A program made the position numbers and the translations under genes. A stretch of 64,000 nt of DNA from Deltaproteobacteria bacterium (GTDB taxonomy: Bacteria; Desulfobacterota; JBBIRW01), in assembly GCA_037441565.1 (NCBI GenBank), contig JBBIRW010000007.1:43297-107296 (forward strand), written 5' to 3'. This document shows, piece by piece, positions 32,715 to 51,181 of this stretch. Position 1 is the first letter of the stretch. Every line of letters starts with the position of its first letter. Below the pieces are notes generated by a model. The model did no database searches. It saw only the letters and a program-made list of their open reading frames with translations, and was not told the origin of the DNA.

Positions 32715-33227
32715 GTGAGAAGATCCCTTGTTCTTGCAACCATTTCATGCTATGCATCGATCTTCTCCATCATATTTTTATCAATAGGCTATTATAACTA
32801 TTACCATGATGGGCCACCCATTCAGCCCATCGCCTTCAGCCATCGTATACATGTTGCAAAGGTTGGCCTTCCCTGCAACTTTTGCCATGTTTATGCTGAT
32901 AAATCAAAAAATGCCGGAATCCCTCATATCCAGAAATGCATGGATTGTCACAGGGCTGTTGCTGTAGAAAAGCCTGAAATAAAGAAACTTACTTCATACT
33001 GGGAACAGCGTAAACCCATAGAATGGATCAAGATTTACAAACTTCCCGATCATGTTTATTTTTCACATAAGAGACATATAAAGAAGGGGGTAGAATGTTC
33101 ACAGTGCCATGGTGAAGTACAGGTCATGGACAGGGTAAGAAGGGTAAGAACTTTAAAGATGGGGTGGTGTGTGAGATGTCACAGGGTAAATGATGCACCA
33201 ACTGATTGTCTCACATGCCATAAATGA
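32715..33227 (+). CDS. actA: Alternative Complex III subunit ActA (pentaheme cytochrome c)
   Basis: 170 aa; N-terminal TM helix and five CxxCH motifs (CNFCH, CMDCH, CSQCH, CVRCH, CLTCH). Confidence 0.8.
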   Translation: MRRSLVLATISCYASIFSIIFLSIGYYNYYHDGPPIQPIAFSHRIHVAKVGLPCNFCHVYADKSKNAGIPHIQKCMDCHRAVAVEKPEIKKLTSYWEQRKPIEWIKIYKLPDHVYFSHKRHIKKGVECSQCHGEVQVMDRVRRVRTLKMGWCVRCHRVNDAPTDCLTCHK

Positions 33228-33239
33228 ACGGAGTGTTAT

Positions 33240-36056
33240 ATGAATAGAAGAAACTTCATGAAGTTCCTTGGCTTCATTACAGGATCAACATTTCTTTCAT
33301 CATGTGGCATTGACAAAGGTTTAAGAAAAATCATATCTTATGCCATACCACCAGAAAAGGAGATCATACCTGGTGAGCCATTATTTTTTAACACAACCTG
33401 CACAGAATGCCCTGCCCTCTGCGGGATTCAGGTTAAGGCATATGAAAAGATCTTTGATACGGAAAGGGGTATCTACCCTGTAAAGCTTGAAGGTATACCG
33501 GATCATCCCATCAATTATGGCACACTATGTATAAGGGGTCAGGCATCCATAACACGACTCTACAATCCCCATCGTATAAAAGATCCCTTAATTAAGGAAA
33601 GGGATGGAGTTTTCAGATCGATAAGCTGGGATCAAGCATTCCAGACCATAATTTCAGAAATCGAAAAACATAAAGCCGAGAAAAGATATAACTTCTTCAT
33701 TTCATCAAGAACAACGGGTTCCCTCTCATTACTTATTGATGAATTCTGTCACGAATTCAATATAAAGAGACTTCCGGAATTTGAAATATATAATTATTCT
33801 GCAATCAGAAAAGCAAACTCATTCCTTTTCGGAAAATATTCAATACCTCATTACAACATAAAGGACGCTGATTTTCTTTTAACAATGGGTGCTGATATTT
33901 TTGAGACTTTTATCAGTCCTGTTTCACACGCAGTTCAATTCTCTATTGCACGGAAAAACAATAATCTAAAGTGGTTTCATGTTGAACCACATCTTTCATT
34001 AACAGGAATATGTTCTGATAAAAGATTTACAATCAATCCTGGAACAGAAATATATCTTCTTATTTATATCCTGACTTCTATTCAAAAAAGAAAAATAAGC
34101 AGCAACATTCCTGCTTCAGTTGGTCAATTAATTCCCTCTCTGCCTTTGGATATTCTGAAAGAAAAAACAGGGCTAAAAGAGGAAGAAATCCTTCTCATAA
34201 GGGATGCTTATCTTAATTCAAAAAGACCCCTCATTATAACAGGTGGCGTCTCAACCAGAAGTGGCAGTGGATTCGAAGTGGCTGTTCTCTCAGGATTAAT
34301 CAATTGGGCTTCCGGATCTATCGGTAGCCTTGTTGATTTCAGCAGAGAAGAGAACTACTTAAGGGTAGGAACAATAGAGGAATTTGTTAATTTCCTTAAA
34401 ACAATTGATGAGAATAACACAGGTTTGCTCTTTCTCCTTAAAACAGATCCTGTTTCCATCTTTCCTCAGCATCTTGGAGTTAAAGAAAAACTCATCAGGG
34501 CGAGATTTAAGGTCTCCCTTTCGGACTCATTCAATGAGACAACAAAAATTTGTGATCTTATCCTCCCCCTTTCTCACTCTCTTGAATCGTGGGGAGATGC
34601 AAATCCAAGAAGAGGACTTGTTAATCTCATCCAGCCTGCAACAAAAACAATTTTCAATACAAAATCGCATGGTGACATAATTATCGAGATTATGAAAAGA
34701 AAGGGAAAAGTTGTTTCTGAAGATTTTAAATCCTTTGTTATGAGTAATTATCAGAAAAGATATGGAAAAGATTCATTAAATATGTTTATTGAAAAAGGCT
34801 TTCATGAAGAAAACCCCTCCCCTGTAAGGGTATCATTCAACGAAGAGAATGCGCAACTGTTCTTGAGGAAGCTCAAATATCCTGAAGCTATGAAAACTCC
34901 CCTTCTTATTCTTTCTCCTTCGTTGAGGTTTTTTGATGGAAGATCTTTTGATCTTGAACTCTTAAAAGAAATCCCGGATCCTTTAAGCACGATATCCTAT
35001 GGGAGCTGGATCTCCCTTTCAGAGGAGACAGCAAAAAAATTGAACATCTCAGAAAGGGATGAGCTCGAAATTACTAAGGACCGATGGTCTATAAGAGTTC
35101 CTGCAAAGATTCAGAAAGGTATAGGAAAGGATATATTTATCGTCCAGATCGGAGGACCGATAAATTATAGTGGCATGACCGATCCCAGAAGCGGTGAAAT
35201 CCTCTCATACATTGAAGGTATAAATATAAGAAAAACGGGAAAGAATGTTTCCATACCAATCCTTTCAGGCTCAATGTCACAGGAAGGAAGGGGTATAATA
35301 CCTTATCCCATACATAGAACTGAAAATAATAAAAAACACAAAGAGAGTTTATATCCTGAACATAAACATGAAAATTACCGATGGGCTATGACTATAGATC
35401 TCGATCTCTGTATAGGATGCTCGGCATGTGTTGCTGCATGTTATATTGAGAACAATGTTCCTATTGTAGGGATTGATGAACATCTCAAAGGAAGAGAGAT
35501 GTCCTGGATCAGGGTCGAGCCATTTTATGATGAAAAGGATGGAATAAGATTCCTGCTCATGCTATGCCAGCAATGTGATTATGCTCCGTGTGAACCTGTC
35601 TGCCCTGTTTATGCAACATATCATAATCCTGAAGGAATAAATGCACAGGTCTATAACAGATGTGTTGGAACAAGGTACTGCTCAAATAACTGTCCGTATA
35701 AGGTCAGAAGATTTAACTGGTATCCTCATGAATGGGAATTCCCAAGGGACAGGATGTTAAATCCTGAGGTATCAGTAAGACAGGCAGGCGTAATGGAAAA
35801 GTGCACATTCTGCATACAACGTATAAGAAGAGCACATGATATCGCAAAGGATGAAGGCAGGTCCATAAGGGATGGTGAAGTAATGCCTGCATGTGCCCAG
35901 ACATGCCCCACCCGTGCAATTACATTTGGTAATATTCTTGATAAGAATTCATCTGTATATAAGCTTTCAAAGTCCGACCGTTCATATCGCATCTTTGAGC
36001 AACTCGGAACAGAACCATCGATATATTATCTTGGAAAGAGGAGAGGAGATGAATAA
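33240..36056 (+). CDS. actB: Alternative Complex III subunit ActB (molybdopterin-oxidoreductase-like + FeS domains)
   Basis: 938 aa; twin-arginine signal (RRNFMKF), large molybdopterin-like domain, C-terminal 4Fe-4S ferredoxin domains (CIGCSACVAAC, CQQCDYAPCEPVCP). Confidence 0.85.
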   Translation: MNRRNFMKFLGFITGSTFLSSCGIDKGLRKIISYAIPPEKEIIPGEPLFFNTTCTECPALCGIQVKAYEKIFDTERGIYPVKLEGIPDHPINYGTLCIRGQASITRLYNPHRIKDPLIKERDGVFRSISWDQAFQTIISEIEKHKAEKRYNFFISSRTTGSLSLLIDEFCHEFNIKRLPEFEIYNYSAIRKANSFLFGKYSIPHYNIKDADFLLTMGADIFETFISPVSHAVQFSIARKNNNLKWFHVEPHLSLTGICSDKRFTINPGTEIYLLIYILTSIQKRKISSNIPASVGQLIPSLPLDILKEKTGLKEEEILLIRDAYLNSKRPLIITGGVSTRSGSGFEVAVLSGLINWASGSIGSLVDFSREENYLRVGTIEEFVNFLKTIDENNTGLLFLLKTDPVSIFPQHLGVKEKLIRARFKVSLSDSFNETTKICDLILPLSHSLESWGDANPRRGLVNLIQPATKTIFNTKSHGDIIIEIMKRKGKVVSEDFKSFVMSNYQKRYGKDSLNMFIEKGFHEENPSPVRVSFNEENAQLFLRKLKYPEAMKTPLLILSPSLRFFDGRSFDLELLKEIPDPLSTISYGSWISLSEETAKKLNISERDELEITKDRWSIRVPAKIQKGIGKDIFIVQIGGPINYSGMTDPRSGEILSYIEGINIRKTGKNVSIPILSGSMSQEGRGIIPYPIHRTENNKKHKESLYPEHKHENYRWAMTIDLDLCIGCSACVAACYIENNVPIVGIDEHLKGREMSWIRVEPFYDEKDGIRFLLMLCQQCDYAPCEPVCPVYATYHNPEGINAQVYNRCVGTRYCSNNCPYKVRRFNWYPHEWEFPRDRMLNPEVSVRQAGVMEKCTFCIQRIRRAHDIAKDEGRSIRDGEVMPACAQTCPTRAITFGNILDKNSSVYKLSKSDRSYRIFEQLGTEPSIYYLGKRRGDE

Positions 36057-37362
36057 GGCGATTTCCAAAGCCATTGAGTTTCGTTACCGGATTGAAAAGG
36101 ATGTTCTCGCTGCAATGAAGAAACCCCATATCCAGTACTGGATCTTCCTTTTTATCTCAGTCATCTTGTTTGTAACTGGCATGTCCCTCTGGTACTACCA
36201 GATAAAAACAGGGATGGGTGTCTCCGGTAAAACGCATCCTGTCGGATGGTACATGTATATAACAAATTTTGTATTCTGGGTTGGAATCGCCCATTCAGGA
36301 ACACTTATATCAGCTGTTCTTTTTCTATTCCGGGCAGGATTCAGGAGCAGTTTCAACAGATCTGCAGAAGCAATGACCGTCTTTGCCATTATGACTGCAG
36401 GGCTCTTCCCCATAATACATCTTGGAAGACCATGGCTTTTCTACTGGTTGCTTCCATACCCGAATGAGAGGCTACTCTGGGTTAACTTCAGATCACCGCT
36501 TATATGGGATGTCTTCGCTGTTGGGACATATTTTACGGTAAGTCTTATCTTCTTTTATGTTGGTATGATTCCCGATCTTGCCATTGCAAGGAGATATGCA
36601 ACAGGATGGAAGAGGCGCCTGTACTCCTTCCTTTCACTCGGATGGCAGGGAACACCGGATCAATGGAGGCACTATAACAGACTATATATGTTTCTTGCAT
36701 CATTTGCAACTCCGCTTGTTGTTTCAGTCCACTCTGTTGTTTCATGGGATTTCGCTATGAGCATTATCCCAGGATGGCATACAACCATATTTGCCCCATA
36801 TTTTGTTGCAGGTGCTATATTTTCTGGAACAGCGATGGTAATAACGCTTGTTGTTCCAATGAGAAAGTTTTTTTCCCTTGAAAAATATATAACTTTAGAT
36901 CACTTTGATAGCATCGCTAAAATATTACTTCTTACATCTCTCATAGTGAGCTATTCATATATCGTGGAATTCTCCATGGCATTTTATGGTGGAAATATAT
37001 TCGAAATGGAAGTATTCAGGTACAGGGCATTTGGTGATTTCTGGATATTCTTCGCCATAATGATTATATGCAACTCCATTATTCCCCTCTTTCTATTCAT
37101 AAGAAAGCTAAGAAGAAATATAAAATTTCTTTTCATATCATCCCTTTTTGTTAATGTGGGTATGTGGATGGAAAGATTCGTAATCATAGTTACTTCCCTT
37201 TCCAGAGACTTTGATCCTTACGCATGGGGACTTCCATCATTCAGCACTGTTGCTATAGGAATCACGCTTGGCAGTTTCGGAATGTTTTTCATGCTTTTTC
37301 TTATATTTGTAAAGGTCCTTCCAATCCTTTCCATTACAGAATTAAAAGAGGTTCACGAATGA
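36049..37362 (+). CDS. actC: Alternative Complex III subunit ActC (NrfD/PsrC-like membrane subunit)
   Basis: Polytopic NrfD-like protein; start set at internal ATG 36049 (MNKAISKA), 8-nt overlap with actB; the track ORF begins at 35893 inside actB. Confidence 0.8.
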   Translation: MNKAISKAIEFRYRIEKDVLAAMKKPHIQYWIFLFISVILFVTGMSLWYYQIKTGMGVSGKTHPVGWYMYITNFVFWVGIAHSGTLISAVLFLFRAGFRSSFNRSAEAMTVFAIMTAGLFPIIHLGRPWLFYWLLPYPNERLLWVNFRSPLIWDVFAVGTYFTVSLIFFYVGMIPDLAIARRYATGWKRRLYSFLSLGWQGTPDQWRHYNRLYMFLASFATPLVVSVHSVVSWDFAMSIIPGWHTTIFAPYFVAGAIFSGTAMVITLVVPMRKFFSLEKYITLDHFDSIAKILLLTSLIVSYSYIVEFSMAFYGGNIFEMEVFRYRAFGDFWIFFAIMIICNSIIPLFLFIRKLRRNIKFLFISSLFVNVGMWMERFVIIVTSLSRDFDPYAWGLPSFSTVAIGITLGSFGMFFMLFLIFVKVLPILSITELKEVHE

Positions 37363-37814
37363 AAAAGGAATATCTGTTTGAAGACAAACACGAATTTGTC
37401 GAAAAATTGAAAGATCTTTTAAAAAAGGGGGTGCCTGTTGATCGAATGCAAATATACCTCCCTTTCCCTGTCGAAGAAGTAGAAGAGATTCTTGGAAGAC
37501 CGGTTAGTAAACTGAATTTCATTACCCTTCTCGGTGCAATCACTGGAACTATTACGGGCTTCGGATTCACAGCTTATACAGTTTTAAGCTGGCCTCTTAT
37601 AACGGGAGGAAAGCCACTGATATCCATCCCTGCATTTGTTATTATAGCATTTGAATTGACAATTCTTTTTGGATCGATCACATCGTTTCTCGGATTCCTT
37701 TCACTCTCACGCCTCCCTGATATTAGAAGGATTCTGAATCCCATGGAATTTGACAACAGATTTGCAATAGTGATAGATGATGGAGAAGATGATGGAAAAA
37801 GGGATGAGGATTAA
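37359..37814 (+). CDS. actD: Alternative Complex III subunit ActD-like small membrane protein
   Basis: About 151 aa from internal ATG 37359 (MKKEYLFEDK), ATGA overlap with actC; one or two TM helices; position matches ActD. Confidence 0.6.
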   Translation: MKKEYLFEDKHEFVEKLKDLLKKGVPVDRMQIYLPFPVEEVEEILGRPVSKLNFITLLGAITGTITGFGFTAYTVLSWPLITGGKPLISIPAFVIIAFELTILFGSITSFLGFLSLSRLPDIRRILNPMEFDNRFAIVIDDGEDDGKRDED

Positions 37815-38811
37815 CCATTACTTCTTATATCTCTTTATTGGTGGATTTTTTATTGTTGCTGTTGAGTTTTTTGCAGGAATAACAAAGGGTTCACTTCTCT
37901 TCACTCTTTCGTATTGGATTGCCATCACTCATGGCTGCATTGCACTTGTTACAGCAGCTAATATTGCAAAGGCTAAATGGATAACTCCACTAAAGAGATA
38001 CCTTCTTTCCGTTTACCCGTTGCTATTGCTTCACTCAATCCTTTTTCTTTTTGTTACTTATGAGCTGGATATATATCCATGGGTTAAAAGTGAAGGATTA
38101 TGGTTAAACAGGCCATTCTTTATAGCAAGAAACTTCTTCCTGCTCTTTCTTTCCTTTTTATCTGCACGAAAATTCTCCAAGGAATCATTAATTGATAGTG
38201 AAAGAAAAAACATCTATGGCTCAATTTATATCGCATTCTTTGTTGCATCACAATCAATGATTGCATTCGACTGGATAATGTCTCTCGAATATCCCTGGTA
38301 CAGCACACTCTTTGGAGGTTATTTTTTCATTGAATCCATATACTCCGGTATTGCAATTTCAGGGATTGTATGTCTATTTCTTATGAGAAAAACTGGGAGC
38401 CAAATCAGTGAAGACCTGGTCAAGACTTTGAGGGATATTGCTACACTAATTTTCGGGTTCAGCTTACTCTGGGCAGGGCTTTTCTATGCGCAGTTCCTTG
38501 TTATCTGGTATGGAAACATTCCTGAGGAGGTAAGCTTTCTGTTTGTAAGGACTAAATTATCACCTTACCGGGAAATCTCGCTTGTTATACTCCCCTCACT
38601 ATTCTTCTTCCCCTTTCTAACACTCCTTTCAAGAAAGACAAAAACGATCCCATTGATCGTCTCAATTATATCGGTATCGATACTTATGGGTATATTTCTT
38701 GAAAGACTGCTATTCCTCCTTCCATCCGTTAAGCTAAATCCTGTAAAGGTAATCTCTCAATCAATCATTATGGCAGCACTGATTATTCTAACGATCAAGA
38801 GAAATAATTAG
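37777..38811 (+). CDS. actF: Alternative Complex III subunit ActF-like polytopic membrane protein
   Basis: 344 aa, about 9 TM helices, immediately after actD; assigned by position and topology only. Confidence 0.55.
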   Translation: MMEKMMEKGMRINHYFLYLFIGGFFIVAVEFFAGITKGSLLFTLSYWIAITHGCIALVTAANIAKAKWITPLKRYLLSVYPLLLLHSILFLFVTYELDIYPWVKSEGLWLNRPFFIARNFFLLFLSFLSARKFSKESLIDSERKNIYGSIYIAFFVASQSMIAFDWIMSLEYPWYSTLFGGYFFIESIYSGIAISGIVCLFLMRKTGSQISEDLVKTLRDIATLIFGFSLLWAGLFYAQFLVIWYGNIPEEVSFLFVRTKLSPYREISLVILPSLFFFPFLTLLSRKTKTIPLIVSIISVSILMGIFLERLLFLLPSVKLNPVKVISQSIIMAALIILTIKRNN

Positions 38812-38824
38812 ATTTTGTGCTTGT

Positions 38825-40708
38825 TTATGTCCCTTTCACAACGAGAATGGGAATATCACCTATATCATGTTGAACAGCAGAAACTGTTGAACCGTATATC
38901 CAGTCTTTTATGTGCTTGTGACCGTGACTCCCAAGAACAAGGAGATCCAGATTCTCTTCTTTTGCTATTTTTACAACCCCTTTTGCTGCATTTCCAAATC
39001 CTATTCGGAAACTTGCCCTTATTCCCTGTGCCCTGATCTTTTCTGAAAGTTTTATTAGGTAATCCTCGTCCCCTGTTCTCTCCCTATCCTCCGCTGTTCC
39101 GCCCCACACCTGAGCAGTTGCACTCTCAACAATATGAATGAGAACAATCTCTGCATCGTATCTCAGTGCAAGGGCAAGTGCATGTTTGAGTATCTTTTGG
39201 TCCGTTTCCTTCACCTCAAGAGCAACCCCTATCTTCCCATATCCAGTGTCCTCCTGAATGGATGGTATCACGGGTTCCGGTACAGAAGTTGGTCTCCTTT
39301 CTAATAATTTCTTGATAAATGGTCCAAATCCCATATACCCTAATAATAGCATCAAAAACGCACCGATTGGAATTACTATAAAATCAACCCACATAGCTGT
39401 CATCCTCCATTCAGACACCGTCTCCCAGACAAGCCAGAGGTTAAGACCTATGATAAAAAGTGCAACAAGCCATGAGAGGATTCTTACCCATAAAGGGTTG
39501 GCAAATTTACCCATCCATTCACGATCACTTGTAAACTGGATAAGGGGGACAATTGCAAAGGGAAGCTGCAGAGATAGAATTACCTGGCTCAGTATGAGAA
39601 GCCTGTATGTACCATGGCTTCCGCTTATTGCAATAACAATAACTGCGGGGATGACAGCAAGTAATCGAGAAATGAGCCTTCTTGCCCATGGCTGAATCTT
39701 TATCCGAATAAATCCCTCCATTACAATCTGCCCTGCTAGTGTTCCTGTGAGTGTTGAAGATTGACCTGCAGCAAGAAGTGCAACAGCAAAGGCAGTGGAG
39801 GCGAGACCTGTTCCCAGCAGTGGTGAGAGAAGTTCGTGCGCCTGCTGAATTTCAACCACCTGAATGCCTCGAGAATAAAAAACAGAAGATGAGAGAACAA
39901 GTATTGCTGAATTCACAAAGAAAGCGGCATTGAGGGCAATAACAGTATCTATAAGATTAAAGCGCGCTGCCGCCTGGATACCCTTGTCCGTTCGCTCAAC
40001 TGCCCTGCTCTGAACAAGCGCTGAATGAAGGTAAAGGTTGTGCGGCATAACAGTTGCTCCCAGCATGCCAAGTGCAACGTAAAGGCTATCACTATCAATT
40101 GTGGGAATAAAACCACCCATAATTGATCTGAAATCAGGTTTAGCAAGAAAGATCTCAACTACAAAACAACAACCTACAATAAATATCAAACCGAGGATTA
40201 TTCCTTCAAATTTGCGAATACCATATCGTTGAATCAGAAGCAGAAGCATTGTATCAAGAGCTGTTAAACTTACACCGATTATAAGTGGAATTCCAAATAA
40301 GAGATTTAAACCTATCGCTGTTCCAAGGACTTCAGCGAGATCGCATGCGGCTATCGCAAGCTCACAGATGATCCACAGAGGATAGTATACAAAAGGCGGA
40401 TATGCTTCACGACATGCCTGAGCGAGATCGCATCTTGCAACAAGACCCAGACGGGCGGAAAGCGTTTGCAGGAGAACAGCCATCAGATTGCTCGCAAGTA
40501 GAACCCATATGAGCCTGTATCCAAACCTTGCTCCCCCTTCGAGATCCGTCGCCCAGTTACCCGGATCCATGTATCCCACAGAAACAAGATATGCAGGACC
40601 AAGGAAAGCAAAGAGGCGCTTCCACCATTTCCAGTAGTGTGGAATCTTCACTGATTCGTAAATTTCAGGAAGGGATACGGTTTCTGTCTTATTGAATTTC
40701 GACCACAT
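38825..40708 (-). CDS. mntH: NRAMP-family divalent metal transporter with C-terminal UspA domain
   Basis: 627 aa; NRAMP motifs (DPGNWATDLEGG, GATVMPHNLYLHS), then a cytoplasmic universal-stress-protein domain (LVLGSHGH...IPILVV). Confidence 0.8.
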   Translation of the reverse strand: MWSKFNKTETVSLPEIYESVKIPHYWKWWKRLFAFLGPAYLVSVGYMDPGNWATDLEGGARFGYRLIWVLLASNLMAVLLQTLSARLGLVARCDLAQACREAYPPFVYYPLWIICELAIAACDLAEVLGTAIGLNLLFGIPLIIGVSLTALDTMLLLLIQRYGIRKFEGIILGLIFIVGCCFVVEIFLAKPDFRSIMGGFIPTIDSDSLYVALGMLGATVMPHNLYLHSALVQSRAVERTDKGIQAAARFNLIDTVIALNAAFFVNSAILVLSSSVFYSRGIQVVEIQQAHELLSPLLGTGLASTAFAVALLAAGQSSTLTGTLAGQIVMEGFIRIKIQPWARRLISRLLAVIPAVIVIAISGSHGTYRLLILSQVILSLQLPFAIVPLIQFTSDREWMGKFANPLWVRILSWLVALFIIGLNLWLVWETVSEWRMTAMWVDFIVIPIGAFLMLLLGYMGFGPFIKKLLERRPTSVPEPVIPSIQEDTGYGKIGVALEVKETDQKILKHALALALRYDAEIVLIHIVESATAQVWGGTAEDRERTGDEDYLIKLSEKIRAQGIRASFRIGFGNAAKGVVKIAKEENLDLLVLGSHGHKHIKDWIYGSTVSAVQHDIGDIPILVVKGT

Positions 40709-40734
40709 TACTACTCATCATTCTATAAATGTTT

Positions 40735-42048
40735 CTAAACATCAAGAATAACACGCGCTGTCCATCCATTATTATCTTTCCTCACCTCAAGCATGTGCAG
40801 GGTCACTGCCTTCACATCAAGATGAAGTATATGTTTTTCCGGATCGATCCTCTCCCCTGCTGCCTTCATCCTCGCCAGCCAGTTATCACCCTTCCTTCCG
40901 ATTTTCACATTAAACTCTCCAAAGATCAGTTTTTCTGTATCTTTGAAAAAGATTATTTCCTGAAGAAGATTAAAAAGGAGAAGATCCAGTTCTTCAGCCT
41001 CAATCTCTATCAGCCTTCTTTCTTTAAGATCGATTGTGCCTGTTTCAAGTATCATGATATTTGTCGTTGCAAGCGCAGAGGAAATAAAAAGTTCCTCAAT
41101 CGTATCACCCTTTGCCTCAAATGCTACATCGGCTGTAACAAAATCTTCAAGAAATCTGTACTTAAATCTCAATGTCATGTTCTCTAACTGGGAAATAACC
41201 CGATCCTTTATCTCATAAGCTCGATCGCCAATAAATACAAGACGCGTTTCTTCCGATTCAAATTCTTCAAAATCCCATCGATCAGAGACATAATTGAACA
41301 GGTAGGAGCCATCGGGAAATTTTACAAATCCCTTTGCCCTGTATATCTTTCCAGAAAAATCATTTAGCATCTCTTCAAATCTTTCCCTCTGGATTGTCCC
41401 TTTTGTACAGAAAGTAAAGTAATCCATGCTATGTGAGTGATGAACAGCATTTGATAAATATCTTTCTACTCCCATCCCGGATAAAAGCTCTGTATCTATA
41501 TTGCAGAATGAAGTTCTGAAAAGGGTCGCCCTTTTGTTAATCTCTTTTACCTTCTCCTCAACCCCTAAGAGATCTTCTTCATCGACCAGGTCTATCTTGT
41601 TTATCAGAATTACATCGGCTGATTCAATCTGTATCCTCCCTGTATAGCCTGTTTCCGGAAATCTAATCATGGCATCAGCATCAACAACAGTAACTACTGT
41701 ATCAAGCTTCACCATTGTTAGTGCCTCACCTATAATCTCTATGAGTGAATCTGGCTCTGCAAGACCTGTGGTTTCAACAAAAATTATATCAGGCCTTATT
41801 TCATTTACTATCTCCTCAATTGCCGCCTCAAATTCTCCCGATAGTGAACAACATACGCATCCTCCGGCAAGTTCAGCCATCCTTATATTTTTCCCCTCAA
41901 GAACCTTGCCATCTATGGGTATCTCTCCAAATTCGTTTACCACAATGGCGATCTTTTTCCTTGAATCCCTTATGATATTCCTCAGAAGGGTTGTCTTACC
42001 ACTGCCGAGATATCCTGTTATCAAAATAAGAGGTGTTTTTGTGATCAT
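40735..42048 (-). CDS. COG0523/CobW-family GTPase (putative metallochaperone) with extended C-terminus
   Basis: 437 aa; P-loop GYLGSGKTT, GCVCC metal-binding motif, CobW_C-like region plus extra C-terminal sequence. Confidence 0.8.
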   Translation of the reverse strand: MITKTPLILITGYLGSGKTTLLRNIIRDSRKKIAIVVNEFGEIPIDGKVLEGKNIRMAELAGGCVCCSLSGEFEAAIEEIVNEIRPDIIFVETTGLAEPDSLIEIIGEALTMVKLDTVVTVVDADAMIRFPETGYTGRIQIESADVILINKIDLVDEEDLLGVEEKVKEINKRATLFRTSFCNIDTELLSGMGVERYLSNAVHHSHSMDYFTFCTKGTIQRERFEEMLNDFSGKIYRAKGFVKFPDGSYLFNYVSDRWDFEEFESEETRLVFIGDRAYEIKDRVISQLENMTLRFKYRFLEDFVTADVAFEAKGDTIEELFISSALATTNIMILETGTIDLKERRLIEIEAEELDLLLFNLLQEIIFFKDTEKLIFGEFNVKIGRKGDNWLARMKAAGERIDPEKHILHLDVKAVTLHMLEVRKDNNGWTARVILDV

Positions 42049-42108
42049 ATCTATAAAATGGACCTTAAAACCATAAGATCCTGGGCTCTCTTCCTTTTCC
42101 TTTTGTAT

Positions 42109-43611
42109 TTAACCCTTAATGTTTCCAACCGGAATGAATCTCACAACCTTTTTTGAAAGTCCTGCAAGCTCTGTGGTATCGACTACTTCATCTATGTTTT
42201 TGTAAGCAGCACCAGCCTCCTCAGCAAGACCAGAAAAGGACGCCGTTCTTACATAAATACCCGTCTCCTCCATCTTCCTCTGGAGAGCCTTTCCATCAAA
42301 TAGTTTCCTTGCCTTCGTTCTGCTCATTGTCCTTCCACTACCATGTGCTGTTGAAAAGAAACTCTTTGTTCCCGAACCTATCCCCGCAAGTAGATAGCTC
42401 CCCGTCTCCATACTTCCGCCAATAATAACAGGCTGACCTGTTTCCTTATATATACCAGGCAATCCTTCCATTCCAGGAGCAAAGGCTCGTGTAGCTCCCT
42501 TTCTGTGAACAATAAGCTGCATCTCCTTTCCATTAACAAAATGTTTTTCAAGCTTTGCTGTATTGTGTGAAACATCGTAAACCATTTGCATCCCGAGCTT
42601 CCTTGCATCCTCCTTGAATACCTTTTCAAAAACCTCTCTTATTCTATGGGTTATTACCTGTCTGTTTGCAAATGACATATTTATCCCGCACTTCATGGCG
42701 GCGAAATAATCCTGACCTTCAGGGGAATCAAAGGGTGCACAGGCAAGTTCCCTATCCCTCACACTAATTCCATATTTCTTCTCCATAACCTTAAGAAAAA
42801 TTTGAAGATAATCAGTTGCAACCTGATGCCCGAATCCACGACTACCACAGTGAAACATCACTACAACCTGATCAGGTATTGATATACCGAAGATCTTTGC
42901 CAGTCTTTCATCGTATATGTTTTCCGGTTTCGCTATCTGAATCTCAAGATAGTGATTGCCTGATCCAAGGGTTCCAATTTGATTTATGCCCCTTTCAACT
43001 GCCTTCTCACTGATCTTTGATGGATCCGCACCCTGAATACACCCCCCTTCTTCTGTCCTTTCAAGATCCTCCTCCCAGCCAAAACCCTTTCTTACACACC
43101 ACCTTGCCCCTTCAGAAAGGACCTCCATGAATTCATTTCTATTAAGTTTCAGAAATCCGGTGCTTCCCACACCACATGGAACCCTCTCAAATAATAGATC
43201 AACAATCTCCTTGATCCTTGGTTTAATATCATTAAATGTCAGGGAAGTAAGGACAAGCCTCATTCCACAGTTTATATCAAAACCAATACCACCCGGTGAT
43301 ATTACACCTACCTTGGCATCCATTGCAGCAACACCACCGATGGGAAATCCATAGCCGGAATGTGCATCTGGCATGCAGAGGGCGTAATTTACAATACCCG
43401 GAAGTGTTGCTACATTTGTTATCTGTTCAAAGACCTGCCAGTCCATCTCGCTTATCAGCTTCTCTGTTCCATATATCCTGGCTGGAGCTCGCATCCCATC
43501 CTTGAACTCCTCAGGGATCTCATAGATAAAATCGCTTATCCTTCTGAATGGTATCGGATGTGCCATAAAGACCTCCCTCAGTAAATAACTTAAACCCTCA
43601 TATGTGGACAT
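42109..43611 (-). CDS. rtcB: RNA-splicing ligase RtcB
   Basis: 500 aa ORF; conserved RtcB segments (CMPDAHSGYGFPIGGV, HCGSRGFGHQ); start may be the internal ATG near 43566. Confidence 0.85.
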   Translation of the reverse strand: MSTYEGLSYLLREVFMAHPIPFRRISDFIYEIPEEFKDGMRAPARIYGTEKLISEMDWQVFEQITNVATLPGIVNYALCMPDAHSGYGFPIGGVAAMDAKVGVISPGGIGFDINCGMRLVLTSLTFNDIKPRIKEIVDLLFERVPCGVGSTGFLKLNRNEFMEVLSEGARWCVRKGFGWEEDLERTEEGGCIQGADPSKISEKAVERGINQIGTLGSGNHYLEIQIAKPENIYDERLAKIFGISIPDQVVVMFHCGSRGFGHQVATDYLQIFLKVMEKKYGISVRDRELACAPFDSPEGQDYFAAMKCGINMSFANRQVITHRIREVFEKVFKEDARKLGMQMVYDVSHNTAKLEKHFVNGKEMQLIVHRKGATRAFAPGMEGLPGIYKETGQPVIIGGSMETGSYLLAGIGSGTKSFFSTAHGSGRTMSRTKARKLFDGKALQRKMEETGIYVRTASFSGLAEEAGAAYKNIDEVVDTTELAGLSKKVVRFIPVGNIKG

Positions 43612-44692
43612 TCAAGCATCCCTATTTTCTGGTATATTAGTGAGTATGATAGTGATAGATGGAAGCTATGGTGAAGGTGGAGGGCAGATCCTGAGAACCG
43701 CACTCAGTATCTCCTGTATAACAGGAAAACCCTTCAGAATATTTAACATAAGGAAGGGGAGGGAAAAACCAGGCCTCATGCCTCAGCATCTCGCCTCCAT
43801 AATGGCAGCAAGGGAGATCTCTGATGCAGATATTGAAGGAGCTTTCATAGGCTCAACAGAACTGATCTTTTCACCCCGAAGGATAAAGGCAGGAGAGTAC
43901 TCATTTAATATAGGTACCGCTGGATCAACAATACTGCTTCTTCAGACCCTCATACCTCCTCTTATCTTTGCTGGAGATCTATCAAGGATCTTAATAAAGG
44001 GCGGAACGCATGTGCCTTTCAGTCCCATTTACGATTATACGGAGAAAGTGTTTGCAGAGTTCTTAAACATGTTAGGAATCAGGATCAGTTTAAGGATCAG
44101 ATCATACGGCTTCTACCCTAAAGGAGGTGGTTCAATAGAGGCTGAAATATATCCTGTAGAGTCGATCTTACCAATAGAGATTCTCGAGAAGGGGAGGTTA
44201 AAAAGGATCGGAGGCTGTTCATCCGTTGCCAATCTCCCCATATCCATTGCAGAGAGACAGCGCACATCCGCTATTAAATATATGAAAGAAAGACTCGGTG
44301 ATGAAGTTCCCATTCATCTTGAAACTATGAATGTTCCAACCCCATCTGAGGGAACATTTCTATTCCTCAAGTGCGAATTTGATCTTTCTATTGCAGGTTT
44401 CTCTTCCCTTGGAAGGAGGGGAAAGAGTGCGGAAAAGGTCGGTGAGGAAGCTGCCTCAGGGCTGATATCATTTCTCAGAACTGATGGTGCAATTGATCCC
44501 CATCTTGCTGACCAGATAGTTCTCTATCTCTCAATGGCCTCAGCTCCATCCCGATTCACTGTATCCTCCATAACGGATCACCTGTTAACGAATCTCTACA
44601 CAATAAGGCATTTCTTTAAAATTAGATACTCCGTTAATGGAGAAAAGGGAGGAGTTGGCCTGATTGAAATAAATCCTGTTCTTCAAAATTAA
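43604..44692 (+). CDS. rtcA: RNA 3'-terminal phosphate cyclase RtcA
   Basis: 362 aa ORF; RtcA N-terminal motif ([19 protein letters not shown]); start may be the internal ATG near 43646. Confidence 0.8.
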
Positions 44693-45582
44693 AGATCGAT
44701 CAGCATGGAGAGGAATATCAATGAGAGATAAACTATCGAATATCTGAAAAGCGTCCTGTCAATTTTCTTTCCTGACAGTTTCATAAAAAAGATAACAAAA
44801 TATATTACATTGAGAAGAATAGAAACCCAGAGGTAAAATGATCCGCAAAATTCTAAAACGAATGGAAGTATGCTTGCCATTGAAAGAAGAACAAGATAGA
44901 TTAACATTAATTCTGATGTCTTCCTTTCGGATATAGCAGGCATTACAGGTATTCCTGCTTTTATATAATCATCTCTGTAGAGACTTGCAAATGACCAGAA
45001 GTGAAGAGGTTGCCAGATCAGGATAATCAGGAATAAAACAAACGCCTCAGCATCAATACCGTTCTTAACCGCAGCGCATCCTATAAGCGGTGGAAGGGCT
45101 CCCGCAATACCGCCAATCTCAGTAGCATGCGGAGTTTTTCTTTTTAGAAATCTTGTATAGAGAAAATAGTAGATGAATGCACCGATCATGGATAGAAATG
45201 CTGACAGTAAATTCACAAAAATGGATAGAAAAATGAATGATAGAATTATGAGAAGCATGCCGAATTTTGTTGCACTCCTTATATCAATTCTTCCGAGAGG
45301 TATTGGCCTGTTTTTTGTCCTTTCCATAACTGCATCTATATCTGCATCATAGCAGTTGTTTAATATTGTTGAGCCGGAGCAGCAAAGTGCAAGACCGGTT
45401 AATGTCCAGAACAGGAGCGATGTATTTATCGCCCCCTTTGATGCAATCCATATACTGGAAAAGGCTGTAATGAGCATAAGGAGTGTTATGCCAGGACCTG
45501 TTACTGAAATATAGTCCCGGAAAACACCCCTTCCAATGCTTTGAGAAACAATAACCCTACTTCTTAGCCCTTCCGTATTCAT
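44689..45582 (-). CDS. ctaB: protoheme IX farnesyltransferase (heme O synthase, UbiA family)
   Basis: UbiA-type polytopic protein with Asp-rich motif (NCYDADIDAVMERTKNRP); start set at internal ATG 45582 to limit overlap with coxI. Confidence 0.8.
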   Translation of the reverse strand: MNTEGLRSRVIVSQSIGRGVFRDYISVTGPGITLLMLITAFSSIWIASKGAINTSLLFWTLTGLALCCSGSTILNNCYDADIDAVMERTKNRPIPLGRIDIRSATKFGMLLIILSFIFLSIFVNLLSAFLSMIGAFIYYFLYTRFLKRKTPHATEIGGIAGALPPLIGCAAVKNGIDAEAFVLFLIILIWQPLHFWSFASLYRDDYIKAGIPVMPAISERKTSELMLIYLVLLSMASILPFVLEFCGSFYLWVSILLNVIYFVIFFMKLSGKKIDRTLFRYSIVYLSLIFLSMLIDL

Positions 45583-47134
45583 AAGGTCCTGATGTAACAA
45601 CAGGTATCCTTTCGAAATTATAACATGGCGGTGGGGAAGGAATCGTCCATTCAAGCGATAGTGCATTCCATGGATTATCAGACGCCTTTTCCCCCACAAA
45701 CGCTGAACGAACAACATTGAAAACGGAAAGCAGGAAACCAGCTATCAGTATATACCCTCCGATAACTGTTACCCTGAATAGCACAGTAAACTCTGGAGGA
45801 TAGCTCCAGTACCTCCTCGGCATGCCCATGAGTCCCAGCTGGAAAAGGGGTATGAAAGCGAAAAGGGAACCGATCATGATCAGCCAGAATGAAAGCCTTG
45901 CCATGCGCTCATTATACATGCGCCCTGTGAATTTTGGAAACCAGAAATAAATACCCGCAAAAGCCACAGATGTCATGGCAAGTGATAGAACCATATGGAA
46001 ATGGGCAACAACCCAGTATGTATCATGAACATGGAGGTCAATTGCAATAAGCCCATTTCCAACGCCCGTAACACCGCCGATAACAAAAAGACTTATAAAA
46101 CCTATCACATAGAGCATAGGCGCCCTGAATTCTATTGCTCCCCTATGCATCGTTCCAAGCCAGTTGAATACCTTTATACCCGTTGGAACAGCAATGAGTA
46201 TTGTAAGCATCGATTGCATGATCCTTGCCCAATCCTCTACACCTTTTGTGAATAGATGATGAATCCATACGGAAAACCCGAGGATGGTAATTGACATAAT
46301 TGCAATGACCATACTCCTGTATCCAAATATCTTTTTCCTTGAAAAGGTTGATACAATTTCCGATACAATTCCAAATGCAGGAAGCGCAACAACATAAACA
46401 GCAGGGTGTCCGTAAAACCAGAATAGATGCTGATAAAGCATCGGAGATCCACCCATTGAAGGATTATAGAAATTTGTTCCCAAGTATCGATCAAAAAGAA
46501 GGAGTGTTACAGCTCCCGCAAGAACAGGTATTCCAAAAAGCTGAATTATAAAAGCACTGAGCATCCCCCATATAGCGAGATTGAGTCTTCCCCATGTCAT
46601 ACCTGGTGCCCTCATACAGATTATAGTTGTTATAAAGTTCACAGCAGATGCGAGGGCAGATCCACCGAGAAGATGAACGGAGAAAACATAAAGCGAAGTA
46701 TTCGCATCCGTGATTATTGAATACGGTGGATAACCTGTCCAGCCGATATCGATCCTTCCAGGTGTTACGAGTGCAAGAACTGCCATAACCGTTGCACCTG
46801 CAAAAAGCCAGTAGCTCAGGGCATTGAGCCTTGGAAATGCAACATCCTTTGCACCTATCATAAGCGGGATAAGGAGATTGGCAAAGAAACCTGTAAAAAC
46901 TGGAATCATCCACCATAAAATCATTGCTGCTCCATGAATTGTGAAGAATACATTGTATGTTTTTGCACCTATTATATCCATTCCTGGGGACCACTGTTCT
47001 GCCTTAATAAAGATGGCAAGGATAAGTCCGAGCACAAAAGCAGTAAGACTTGTTATAAGATAGAGAACTGCAATCCTTTTATGGTCTGTTGTAAATATCC
47101 ATTCCTTTATACTAAAGCCCTTTTTTTCTGACAT
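45557..47134 (-). CDS. ctaD: cytochrome c oxidase subunit I (second copy)
   Basis: 525 aa; GHPAVYVVALP and WIHHLF motifs; 12 TM. Confidence 0.9.
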   Translation of the reverse strand: MSEKKGFSIKEWIFTTDHKRIAVLYLITSLTAFVLGLILAIFIKAEQWSPGMDIIGAKTYNVFFTIHGAAMILWWMIPVFTGFFANLLIPLMIGAKDVAFPRLNALSYWLFAGATVMAVLALVTPGRIDIGWTGYPPYSIITDANTSLYVFSVHLLGGSALASAVNFITTIICMRAPGMTWGRLNLAIWGMLSAFIIQLFGIPVLAGAVTLLLFDRYLGTNFYNPSMGGSPMLYQHLFWFYGHPAVYVVALPAFGIVSEIVSTFSRKKIFGYRSMVIAIMSITILGFSVWIHHLFTKGVEDWARIMQSMLTILIAVPTGIKVFNWLGTMHRGAIEFRAPMLYVIGFISLFVIGGVTGVGNGLIAIDLHVHDTYWVVAHFHMVLSLAMTSVAFAGIYFWFPKFTGRMYNERMARLSFWLIMIGSLFAFIPLFQLGLMGMPRRYWSYPPEFTVLFRVTVIGGYILIAGFLLSVFNVVRSAFVGEKASDNPWNALSLEWTIPSPPPCYNFERIPVVTSGPYEYGRAKK

Positions 47135-47150
47135 ATAAAATCACCTCCAG

Positions 47151-48926
47151 TTATTTCAGCGATTTAAGATATGCGATTATGGAATATATCTGTCTTTCGG
47201 AAAGCCTGTATGGTGGCATTGCTGCAGGATAACCTTTAACAATCTTCTCTGAGGGATAAAGTATTGAGTGTTCTATATACTCCTCATCAACCTTCATGCT
47301 TCCACCATCCTCGAACCTTGTTTCCCTCCCAAATATTCCTTTAAATGTTGGACCTGTTGATTCCTCCCCCGTAACTGTGTGACATCCCAGACATCCCAGG
47401 ATCTCAACAAGCCTCCTTCCCTCATTGATATCGGGTAAAGCTTCTCCCTCACTCTTCGCCTTTGATATCCATGCATTGAAATCCTCCCTCTTCATTGCTA
47501 TCACCTTTGCAATCATCATAGAATGACCATTTCCGCAGAACTCCGTGCAGAATGCCCTGTATAATCCTGGCTTTTCCGCATTAAACCACAGATACGTTAT
47601 CCTTCCCGGAATTGCTTCCTCCTGAATATGGAAATCTGGAAGGAAAAATCCATGAAGCACATCCCTGCTTGTAAGGCTGATCCTTACAGGAATTCCGGCA
47701 GGAATAACAATCTCATTTACCCCTTTTATTCCTTCAGGGTAGGTAACATTCCATCCCCACATGAACCCCTCGACGCTGATCTCATATGCATTGGATGGAA
47801 CACCTCTGAATTTCTGATAAATACTCCATGTCTGGATCCCTAAGAAAATAACAATCACAAGAGGAATAACAGTCCATATAATTTCAACAAGTGAATTCCC
47901 CTCAATGTAATCCCCTTCTTCCCTTCCTCTTCCCTTTCTGTAACGGATGCAAATATAAATTAACGGAATCGTTACAACTAACCAGACGGCGAACATAAGT
48001 ATAAGATAGATACCGAAGTGCTGATCCCACAGCCTCGATGGATTGCTTGCATCAGATGCGAGTGCATCTTTTCCGGAAATGAAAGTTATGAAAGGGATCA
48101 GTAGCAGTAACTCTGATCTCCTTTTCTTTACATAAATAACAATGGAGAGCAACCCGGTAATAACCCCCATAAAAATTCCAGCTGCAATAAAAAGAAGCGG
48201 AATGTTTATCACATATGTTCGTGATCCTGGATCGTATTTATAGCATGCAAATGTAATCATGCTCGCTATCGAAACACTTCCAGAAATCCCCTTCATTGAT
48301 TCAAGTATTGCTAACCGAACGTTGAATGGATCAGGTTTTGATCCATAAAGATATCTTGTTATCCTTCCTTCGGGAGAGATAAATATGTAAACAGATGGAT
48401 GTACAAACATTCCATCTTGAATTGAATAGAAGAACCGATATCCCGTGCTCTCGACCAGCTTATTTATATTTTCATCTGTCGTTGTTGCAAATTTCCATTG
48501 ATTAAATACTTCTGATCTCTTTTTATTAAAAACTCTTTCATAGAATTCTAATGCTTTTGATGGTGTATCCTTGCTGTTAAAGCTCAAAATAAGAACATGG
48601 TAATCTTTTCCATTTTTTAAATCCCTTATCTCATTCAATGCATCAAAAAGTCCCTCAACAAGAAGCGGGCAGATATGTGGACAATCATAATAAACAAGCG
48701 TAAGGATCAGGACTTTGCCCTTGAATTGCGAAATAGAAAATTCTTTCCTGCTTTTATCCGTAAAAGTTATTTCTGCAACGGATCTTCCGAGATGTTTTTC
48801 TTCTTCTATCTTTAAAATCGCCGGATTGAAATCCGAGGTTGATATAGTAGGAATCTTTGCCTCTAAATCAGCATTAAATGAAAGTATAAAGAAGATCAAA
48901 ATAACCAATCTTCCAATCGATACCAT
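47151..48926 (-). CDS. SCO1/SenC domain fused to cytochrome c oxidase subunit II with C-terminal cytochrome c domain
   Basis: 591-aa single frame: signal peptide, SCO1-like thioredoxin domain (CPHICP, YDPGSRTYV + TM), two CoxII TM helices, cupredoxin domain with CuA site (FCTEFCGNGHSMM), C-terminal heme c motif CLGCH. Confidence 0.8.
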   Translation of the reverse strand: MVSIGRLVILIFFILSFNADLEAKIPTISTSDFNPAILKIEEEKHLGRSVAEITFTDKSRKEFSISQFKGKVLILTLVYYDCPHICPLLVEGLFDALNEIRDLKNGKDYHVLILSFNSKDTPSKALEFYERVFNKKRSEVFNQWKFATTTDENINKLVESTGYRFFYSIQDGMFVHPSVYIFISPEGRITRYLYGSKPDPFNVRLAILESMKGISGSVSIASMITFACYKYDPGSRTYVINIPLLFIAAGIFMGVITGLLSIVIYVKKRRSELLLLIPFITFISGKDALASDASNPSRLWDQHFGIYLILMFAVWLVVTIPLIYICIRYRKGRGREEGDYIEGNSLVEIIWTVIPLVIVIFLGIQTWSIYQKFRGVPSNAYEISVEGFMWGWNVTYPEGIKGVNEIVIPAGIPVRISLTSRDVLHGFFLPDFHIQEEAIPGRITYLWFNAEKPGLYRAFCTEFCGNGHSMMIAKVIAMKREDFNAWISKAKSEGEALPDINEGRRLVEILGCLGCHTVTGEESTGPTFKGIFGRETRFEDGGSMKVDEEYIEHSILYPSEKIVKGYPAAMPPYRLSERQIYSIIAYLKSLK

Positions 48927-48939
48927 TTTTTCCTCCTCA

Positions 48940-49683
48940 TCAAGCTTTTAGAAAGCTATACGGGAGGATATAAACCAATGAAAGAATGAGAAGCCATAGA
49001 CCATCAACAAAATGCCAGTAGTATCCGCAAATCCTTACAACACTTCTACGAATTCCTCCAGCTCCTTTTCTAATTGAAAGAAGCAGAATATAAAGCTGAA
49101 ACAAAACACCCACAAGAACATGGGAGCCGTGAAGACCTGTTATCAGATAAAAATATGTTCCGTAGGAGTTACTTGTAATAGTTAATCCTTCAGATATAAG
49201 CCTGCTCCATTCCCTTGCCTGTCCCATAAGAAAAAGAAGGCCAAGCACAATTGTCAAGGAAAGCCATTGCTTCATGTATTTCCTTTCAGCCATCTGAATT
49301 GTTACACTCGAGGAAATAAGAATGACTGTCAGGATCATTGCAAAACCAAGTGGTGGAATGTCTGCTGGTATTCCTGGAGATATCCATTCCCCTTTGGGAA
49401 GCATGCTGTATAAGTATGCGCTTAAAACTCCGCTAAAGAGTGCGATCTCAGATAGGATAAAAACCACCATTGCCGTAGTGCTGATCCTTTCTTCTGAATC
49501 CGATTCGAATACCTCGGATACCCATCCTGTGAGGCTTATGATTGTGCCCGCAGCACCCAGACAGGCTGTAAAAAGGCCTCCGACAGGAATCTTCCACTGA
49601 AATGAGATCATAAAACCCATCATGATGAGGAATGATGAAAAAGCTGTAAAAAATGGCCAGATGCTTACAAATTGAGTATGCAT
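48940..49683 (-). CDS. ctaE: cytochrome c oxidase subunit III (second copy)
   Basis: 247 aa polytopic protein; subunit-III C-terminal pattern (GLHGSHVLVGV, YYWHFVDGLWLL). Confidence 0.75.
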   Translation of the reverse strand: MHTQFVSIWPFFTAFSSFLIMMGFMISFQWKIPVGGLFTACLGAAGTIISLTGWVSEVFESDSEERISTTAMVVFILSEIALFSGVLSAYLYSMLPKGEWISPGIPADIPPLGFAMILTVILISSSVTIQMAERKYMKQWLSLTIVLGLLFLMGQAREWSRLISEGLTITSNSYGTYFYLITGLHGSHVLVGVLFQLYILLLSIRKGAGGIRRSVVRICGYYWHFVDGLWLLILSLVYILPYSFLKA

Positions 49684-50886: not shown

Positions 50887-51179
50887 AATTTAAACCTGCT
50901 CATGAATTAGGATGGAAGGAACTTAAGCCGGGATATATAATAGATGATCCCGGCAATTCAATTCATTATAAAACGGGAAGCTGGAGATCGCGCCTTCCTG
51001 TCTGGGATTACTCCCGATGCATCAAATGTGGTATATGTTACATTTTCTGTCCTGACAACGCTGTTATCCAGAGATCAGATAGATACTTTGAAGTTGATCT
51101 CGATTTCTGCAAAGGTTGCGGAATCTGTGCCAGAGAATGCTACACCCAATGTATAACAATGAAAGAGGAAAGGGTTTAG
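50883..51179 (+). CDS. porD: pyruvate/2-oxoacid:ferredoxin oxidoreductase delta subunit (2x[4Fe-4S])
   Basis: 98 aa; two ferredoxin motifs (CIKCGICYIFCP, CKGCGICARECY); 4-nt overlap with porG. Confidence 0.85.
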   Translation: MKFKPAHELGWKELKPGYIIDDPGNSIHYKTGSWRSRLPVWDYSRCIKCGICYIFCPDNAVIQRSDRYFEVDLDFCKGCGICARECYTQCITMKEERV

Positions 51180-51181
51180 AT

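Follow-up and report, generated by a model that had tools for sequence, protein, structure and literature searches.

The 3′-phosphate/5′-OH RNA ligase RtcB and its activator Archease are encoded together in the “tRNA splicing operon” known from Pyrococcus horikoshii and from diverse bacteria and archaea (PMC3973293). In a stretch of 64,000 nucleotides (nt) from a member of the Deltaproteobacteria (GenBank assembly GCA_037441565.1, contig JBBIRW010000007.1; this whole stretch is called the window here, and coordinates of the locus are positions within it) the same succession is found, an apparently Archease-dependent RtcB being followed on the same strand by an Archease with its metal-site residues and its free C-terminus retained; here, however, a gene for a G3E GTPase of the COG0523 family intervenes and is joined in frame to archease, whereas the published operon is described without a GTPase. 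The COG0523–Archease fusion protein, its relation to RtcB and the metal transporter gene mntH-usp behind it are the subject of this report. The cluster is interpreted, with somewhat more confidence than doubt, as an RNA-repair/ligation operon in which the fusion protein would serve as a bifunctional RtcB accessory factor, the COG0523 half handling the metal of RtcB.

The metal site essential to P. horikoshii Archease consists of D12, D141 and the free carboxylate of the C-terminal residue (I142), and K117 is required as well (PMC3973293). [quoted passage not shown] A passage of the same study has the binding between RTCB and Archease depend on GTP and Mn2+ (PMC10944509).

With the COG0523 metallochaperones the GTPase shares the G3E P-loop, the CxCC motif, a CobW_C domain with an RxKG motif and the compact size of about 290 amino acids (aa). 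CobW, which serves the insertion of Co2+ into cobalamin, and the nitrile hydratase activators are encoded in operons with their clients, a logic which is repeated here; the zinc-linked ZigA, YciC, YeiR and YjiA and the pairs MigC–MurD and ZNG1–METAP1 were also compared (PMC2770081; PMC7895991; PMC12208494; PMC13001444). In contrast to all of these, the subfamily considered here forms a separate clade, its presumed client would be an RNA ligase with Mn2+ as catalytic metal, and the fusion to the activator of a client is new. In the main text and the searchable part of the supplements of the survey by Haas et al. from 2009 (PMC2770081), an rtcB/archease context is not among the 15 subfamily contexts and neither protein is mentioned, nor are they in a 2024 review on metallostasis. 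No paper linking COG0523 or CobW with RtcB or Archease was found in the full text of about 8 million papers, a body of literature which does not cover the RtcB-neighbourhood survey of Burroughs and Aravind (2016). The rtcB–COG0523–archease operon is apparently undescribed.

The fusion protein

On sequence grounds the fusion protein has everything that is expected of both a COG0523 GTPase and an Archease (Table 1). An initial annotation, made from the letters alone, had placed this gene and mntH-usp on the minus strand, where both open reading frames (ORFs) were indeed found unbroken, and had read the former as a CobW/COG0523 GTPase with a GCVCC motif and a longer than usual C-terminus. The motif is present as GGCVCCS (cysteines C64, C66 and C67); compared with its unfused relatives (about 293 aa) the protein is about 140 aa longer, and this extra part is a complete Archease domain, which had not been recognized; rtcB, directly upstream on the same strand, had been missed. 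The GTPase part scores 163 bits for the cobW domain (PF02492; threshold 20.7) and 47 bits for CobW_C (PF07683; threshold 22), with the Walker A motif GYLGSGKT at residue 12, CVCC at 64–67 (nt 41848–41859) and NKID at 150; the Walker A, CxCC and NKxD positions are invariant in an alignment of the subfamily (alignment A1). GGCVCCS is likewise invariant, in 30/30 aligned sequences and at all 24 subfamily loci, as is RxKG (R237-A-K239-G240; 30/30), the arginine finger of the C-terminal domain of COG0523 proteins which is essential to GTP hydrolysis (PMC13001444). Scores for the curated equivalog families stay far below the cutoffs (YjiA-like, 109 of 361 bits; ZigA NF038288, 99.7 of 600); the cobalamin-type CobW of a cob operon, which had been considered as a counter-possibility, does not apply, with 125 of 332 bits for TIGR02475 and no cob genes as neighbours of the window gene or of its relatives.

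The Archease domain covers profile positions 1–136 of 136 (PF01951; 129 bits, gathering threshold 25) and matches the Archease of P. horikoshii (4n2p) with 89 bits. In an alignment which also contained MTH1598 of Methanothermobacter thermautotrophicus, its TAD, DVKAVT and terminal D-V (...LDV-stop) match TAD, EVKAIT and D-I of the P. horikoshii protein; His9 of the latter is replaced by Val, as it is in MTH1598. The order of the domains, GTPase then Archease, keeps the C-terminal carboxylate free. Five contigs, assembled independently, carry a gene for exactly this 437-aa protein, and a further one (locus L001) has a version with 88% identity, so that the long ORF is not an assembly error. In an AlphaFold2 model all three domains are folded (mean predicted local distance difference test, pLDDT, 77.6; predicted template modelling score, pTM, 0.52), with the CxCC loop below 50.

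Most unfused members of the subfamily end in a conserved L-K-x-C-E (alignment A1, columns about 305–313), the cysteine of which is kept in the fusion proteins P0003, P0004 and P0005 and lost in the window protein (…QLENMTL…). This residue might serve as a further ligand of the metal or in contacting Archease.

RtcB and the conserved operon

RtcB of the window scores 557 bits against the P. horikoshii enzyme and, in the alignment, retains the equivalents of D95, C98, N202/H203, H234, H329 and H404, of which D95, C98, H203, H234 and H329 are metal ligands and H404 is guanylylated; judged from these features it belongs to the archaeal/eukaryal, Archease-dependent type. Its probable start is the ATG at 43566 behind the Shine-Dalgarno sequence GGGAGG, which gives the 485 aa likewise called in relatives. 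The protein was also scored by an NCBIfam model for intein-containing RtcB, over the extein part only. In the archaeon GW2011_AR5 (L023, 3406–6312) the tblastn match to RtcB is split (residues 16–115 and 114–500), the halves lying about 1.4 kb apart inside one ORF of 969 aa, which suggests an intein.

Homologs of the fusion protein were sought among 5.8 billion proteins and the best 120 examined. About 11 of these are fused, with 41–88% identity; the others are about 293 aa long and 50–60% identical to the GTPase part. In every fused case examined (L001, L002, L003/L004, L093–L095) rtcB lies directly upstream, and unfused relatives (L005, L007, L009, L092) are encoded in rtcB–cobW–archease operons in which the stop of cobW is 1–4 nt from the start of archease. 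A GTDB scan with one genome per species returned 80 COG0523 loci, separated by a sharp gap in identity: 19 at 44–55% and 61 at 35% or less. RtcB and/or Archease were detected by tblastn within the flank of 17 of the 19 close loci (at least 44% identity), as opposed to none of the 61 others (Fisher p=1.7e-15). In a neighbour-joining tree the close set, whose 24 members all have the GGCVCCS motif, is monophyletic. Its carriers come from at least nine bacterial and archaeal phyla; among the bacteria are Verrucomicrobiota, Cyanobacteria, Acidobacteriota, Gemmatimonadota, Latescibacterota, Tectomicrobia and a bacterium of the candidate phyla radiation, among the archaea Woesearchaeota and Aenigmatarchaeota.

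The relation was also found in the reverse direction, starting from RtcB. Among 80 metagenomic loci with an RtcB 69–75% identical to that of the window, the GTPase gene directly follows rtcB in 53, with archease next in 47 and the contig ending too early in 6; rtcB is followed directly by archease in 22, by neither in 1, and 4 loci are too short to judge. The GTPase is thus carried by about 70% of these related rtcB loci. As three-gene and rtcB–archease loci are interleaved in the RtcB tree, the GTPase is an accessory which is often gained or lost, and not an obligate component. The rtcB–COG0523–archease operon is widespread, and this COG0523 subfamily has RtcB and Archease as its conserved partners. 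Among 119 flanking ORFs at 22 loci that were examined with Pfam, no fourth recurrent partner was found, none of the families being present at more than 3 loci.

Single loci deviate from the simple three-gene order. One unfused operon has a DUF2127 gene inserted after rtcB and before the COG0523 gene (L007, 5549–5998; L008, 2497–2946), and in a metagenome-assembled genome of Myxacorys chilensis (L012, 8387–9445) rtcA follows archease on the same strand, which makes a four-gene rtcB–cobW–archease–rtcA operon. Insertions between the COG0523 gene and archease, found at some DPANN archaeal loci, comprise a PIF1-like helicase with a WYL domain (L027, 3404–4966), a NUDIX gene together with one for a DNA-alkylation-repair protein (L013, 7949–9250) and an ORF with no Pfam match (L016, 7918–8853); the module appears to be a gathering place for genes of nucleic-acid repair. 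At the DPANN locus L023 a gene of the VIT1 family (Pfam VIT family, E=5e-59; 9285–9989, minus strand) lies about 1 kb downstream of archease, beside an EamA transporter gene, and a VIT1-family gene is also present, again about 1 kb from the module, at the DPANN locus L026 (3281–3964, minus strand), where the homologs of both L023 genes are 55–61% identical. These VIT1-family proteins, transporters of Fe2+/Mn2+, are the sole other metal transporters seen near the module.

Origin and meaning of the fusion

When a tree was built from the GTPase domain, none of 100 bootstraps recovered the fused proteins as a single clade, and the window protein and its 88% identical relative grouped with unfused proteins in 93 of 100. 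The fused proteins are therefore polyphyletic, and the cobW–archease fusion arose at least twice. It is rare, whereas the operon is common: none of the 80 metagenomic rtcB loci carries the fused form, and among the best 150 homologs the fused proteins are represented once at the 50%-identity level (P0002). Repeated fusion and closely spaced genes, taken in combination, are the classical sign that two proteins act jointly, and the fusion protein is very probably an accessory factor of RtcB.

The covalent tether would also suit a quite different function, namely that of a GTP-dependent switch which times the engagement of RtcB by Archease, for example by coupling activation of the ligase to the GTP level or by timing the release of Archease, the CxCC motif then being merely an allosteric or structural metal sensor. 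COG0523 proteins do alternate between open and closed states with the nucleotide (PMC13001444), and the dependence of RTCB–Archease binding on GTP and Mn2+ given in a passage of the guanylylation study (PMC10944509) would fit. The strict invariance of GGCVCCS, however, argues for a central role of metal binding, and most members of the subfamily are separate polypeptides, for which an intramolecular switch is less natural; a pure switch is accordingly improbable.

The adjacent NRAMP–Usp transporter

The gene behind the fusion gene encodes an MntH-like transporter with a C-terminal universal stress protein (Usp) domain, as the initial annotation had it. Both parts lie in one frame with no stop in between, and the same architecture of about 620 aa is found in 119 of the best 120 homologs, many of which are annotated simply as manganese transporters, so that a frameshift artefact does not account for it. 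The Nramp domain (residues 52–404; Pfam E=6e-134) has the canonical metal-site motifs DPGN at 48 (transmembrane helix 1) and MPHN at 221 (transmembrane helix 6), and the NCBIfam MntH model (NF001923) is reached with 596 bits (cutoff 430). It is followed by two hydrophobic segments (410–428 and 438–456), which supply an extra (12th) transmembrane helix and from which a cytoplasmic position of the Usp domain (residues 490–625; Pfam E=4e-21, 76 bits against 24) is predicted. The ATP-binding motif that had been suggested for checking, G-x2-G-x9-G-S, is present at 593 (GSHGHKHIKDWIYGS). Compared with known NRAMP/MntH and Usp-fused transporters, there is nothing unusual in the window protein; by its sequence it is ordinary, and what is specific to the lineage is only where it stands, behind the rtcB module. 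Named homologs with 56–58% identity are from Bacteroidota and KSB1.

In the initial annotation the transporter and the GTPase were taken for a metal-homeostasis pair. In this reading an importer and a chaperone distributing the metal would work together, with transport gated by the Usp domain and with RtcB and Archease as bystanders. The adjacency and the fusions on which this was based are real: the genes are neighbours on the same strand with a gap of 26 nt, they are kept together in L001 and L093–L095, both proteins handle divalent metals, and the Usp domain has its ATP motif. The distribution of the genes largely refutes the idea nevertheless. NRAMP–Usp stands beside the fusion gene only in the window and in the four loci just named; the 27 other subfamily loci retrieved (L002–L028) and the 80 related rtcB loci lack it, and its relatives at 70–71% identity occupy unrelated neighbourhoods, the architecture being very common as a stand-alone gene, so that any Usp gating of transport would not be specific to this locus. 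The COG0523 domain, in turn, shares one polypeptide with Archease, and the occurrence of its subfamily follows that of RtcB with the significance given above. A general homeostasis pair is thus very improbable, and the initial interpretation is supported only in part. A functional tie of MntH-Usp to the rtcB module is conceivable rather than probable: as Mn2+ is the metal which RtcB needs, provisioning by this importer would be chemically sensible, and the evidence from the neighbourhood is weak.

Regulatory sequences

The spacer between rtcB and the fusion gene is 60 nt long in the window and 14 nt in L001, where the 26-nt gap between the fusion gene stop and the mntH-usp start is also kept; such distances fit a single transcript for rtcB, the fusion gene and mntH-usp, and the latter two are likely co-transcribed. 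A search for metal-regulatory boxes had been suggested upstream of the fusion gene and mntH-usp. There is no match to the Fur box within 3 mismatches in the window, the consensus used possibly not being that of the host lineage, and the three intergenic regions contain no inverted repeat. An Rfam scan of the locus (38000–45000) at E<=1 gave no match, hence no Mn riboswitch, and matches to promoters and terminators occurred at background counts only. A weak terminator-like hairpin in the rtcB–fusion spacer (42060–42081, minus strand; 8 pairs, of which 3 are G-C, followed by a T-rich tail) was dismissed because it is missing from the spacer in L001, and an ATTT(T)ATAGA which both genes have upstream was rejected because 25 of 100 shuffles do as well.

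A possible role in the metalation of RtcB

[quoted passage not shown] The COG0523 half, by binding and hydrolyzing GTP, would install or keep the correct metal in the Cys/His/Asp binuclear centre of RtcB or in a site bridged by Archease, transfer being conceivable in either direction (Mn2+ in or Zn2+ out); the fusion would tether the GTPase, with its metal-handling function, to the domain which docks at its client's active site. In this lineage only, MntH-Usp might provide Mn2+ locally during expression of the ligase. An action of the COG0523 part on the metalation of RtcB has, in our estimate, slightly better than an even chance; that the metal in question is Mn2+ is proposed tentatively, as one possibility.

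There is precedent for such a division of labour. In the UreG and HypB systems the partner of the G3E GTPase is a small adaptor which binds metal and docks on the apo-enzyme. By analogy, Archease with its metal-coordinating tip could play the part of the adaptor; compared with nickel insertion by UreG/UreE/UreF-H and HypB/HypA, the subfamily, the metal and the client differ, and the adaptor here has a documented role in activating guanylylation.

Several points weigh against this interpretation. What was observed are the identities of the domains, their intact motifs, the conserved gene order, the specificity for one subfamily and the independent fusions; physical contact with RtcB and the transfer of metal are inferred from there. 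The CxCC thiolate sites of characterized COG0523 proteins bind Zn and Co tightly and Mn only weakly, and a Mn2+ chaperone would, to our knowledge, be unprecedented. The GTPase is dispensable in close relatives, that is, an optional accessory; the adjacency of the NRAMP gene is limited to one lineage, the flanking census contains no recurrent gene (VIT1 is near two archaeal loci only), and no metal-responsive operator or riboswitch was detected at the locus. Finally, the AlphaFold2 model leaves the geometry between the domains undefined and so neither supports nor contradicts a path for hand-off.

Since the CxCC motif prefers Zn and Co, models with a Zn-handling or guarding COG0523 domain were kept as rivals, as was the GTP switch treated above. 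The domain would then handle Zn2+ or another thiophilic metal. It could deliver Zn2+ to an RtcB which uses it, or it could act as a guard which strips or sequesters inhibitory Zn2+, Cu or Co from the Cys-containing site of RtcB so that Mn2+ can bind, the guard being a functional analogue of the protection of the active-site cysteine of metazoan RTCB. With a cysteine and three histidines among its ligands, the RtcB site would normally prefer Zn2+ to Mn2+, following the Irving-Williams series. A CxCC site is what COG0523 proteins that bind Zn/Co typically have; further, the block of Mn-dependent guanylylation by equimolar Zn2+ comes from a study in which the metal identity of RtcB is called “debated” (PMC10944509), and a statement within another describes the active-site Cys of RTCB as vulnerable to metal-induced oxidation (PMC12263435). 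On the other side stand the lack of a Zur box among the sites searched, the low histidine content (3 His in the first 292 residues) with no His-rich linker, the scores for the ZigA and YjiA models far below their cutoffs, and the neighbour in this lineage, which is an importer of Mn2+/Fe2+ and not a zinc system. A zinc-directed function is considered rather unlikely on these grounds.

Genomic setting

The gene rtcA is divergent from rtcB, which is followed on the same strand by the fusion gene and mntH-usp (Table 1). The start of RtcA was placed after the gene calls in relatives (348 aa, as in L001, L094 and L095); the mechanical ORF start is at 43604.

Table 1. Genes and domains of the RNA-repair cluster, with window positions in nt
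Feature	Position	Strand	Basis
rtcA, RNA 3′-phosphate cyclase	43646..44692	+	Pfam RTC E=2e-77 and RTC_insert; TIGR03399 379 bits (cutoff 250)
rtcB, 3′-phosphate/5′-OH RNA ligase, 485 aa	42109..43566	-	Pfam RtcB E=1e-168, 562 bits
COG0523 G3E GTPase + CobW_C + Archease fusion gene, 437 aa	40735..42048	-	three Pfam domains above gathering thresholds; single ORF
Fusion G-domain (cobW), residues 6-176	41521..42033	-	Pfam E=6e-48
Fusion CobW_C domain, residues 211-288	41185..41418	-	Pfam E=2e-12
Fusion Archease domain, residues 297-437, ending ...ILDV-COOH	40738..41160	-	Pfam PF01951 E=2e-37
mntH-usp, NRAMP divalent-metal (Mn2+/Fe2+) importer with C-terminal Usp, 627 aa	38825..40708	-	Pfam, NCBIfam, motifs
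Nramp core of mntH-usp	39497-40555	-	
Usp part of mntH-usp	38834-39241	-	

The rtcA/rtcB/cobW-archease/mntH cluster is enclosed by two respiratory operons (32715–38811, plus strand, and 44689–49683, minus strand), an alternative-complex-III-like operon (multihaem cytochrome, molybdopterin/FeS subunit, NrfD, ActD) and one for a caa3-type oxidase (UbiA/CtaB, COX1, COX2, COX3); the layout in L001 is identical. Operons of these two kinds are often contiguous, and the RNA-repair cluster therefore looks like an insertion between them. Elsewhere the window encodes an aldehyde:ferredoxin oxidoreductase, which we take to be a tungsten-type enzyme, a subunit of pyruvate:ferredoxin oxidoreductase, a second COX1 and a PAS-domain Ser/Thr kinase (jointly at 13344–15149 (-), 51116–52357 (+), 28239–29858 (+) and 6759–8441 (-)). 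With anaerobic-type enzymes next to aerobic ones, this set points to an organism that is facultative or microaerophilic.

Implications

For an orphan family of metallochaperones the subfamily offers an explicit candidate client, RtcB, which is named by an operon order conserved in bacteria and archaea alike and by repeated fusion to the activator of that client. RtcB lends itself to testing, as structures have been solved, assays of guanylylation and ligation are simple, and its need for Mn2+ and its inhibition by Zn2+ are known (PMC10944509). The operon bears on how the Cys/His/Asp site of RtcB gains Mn2+ in cells where Zn2+ binds more tightly, and on the purpose of the metal site of Archease. 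A more far-reaching and somewhat doubtful possibility is that in these proteins a G3E/COG0523 metallochaperone is for the first time devoted to a nucleic-acid enzyme, and possibly for the first time handles Mn2+; they would load the RtcB centre, or proof-read it against Zn2+, with Archease as the adaptor for docking and hand-off. If so, the long-puzzling metal-binding tip of Archease would be part of a pathway of metal delivery besides being a catalytic aid.

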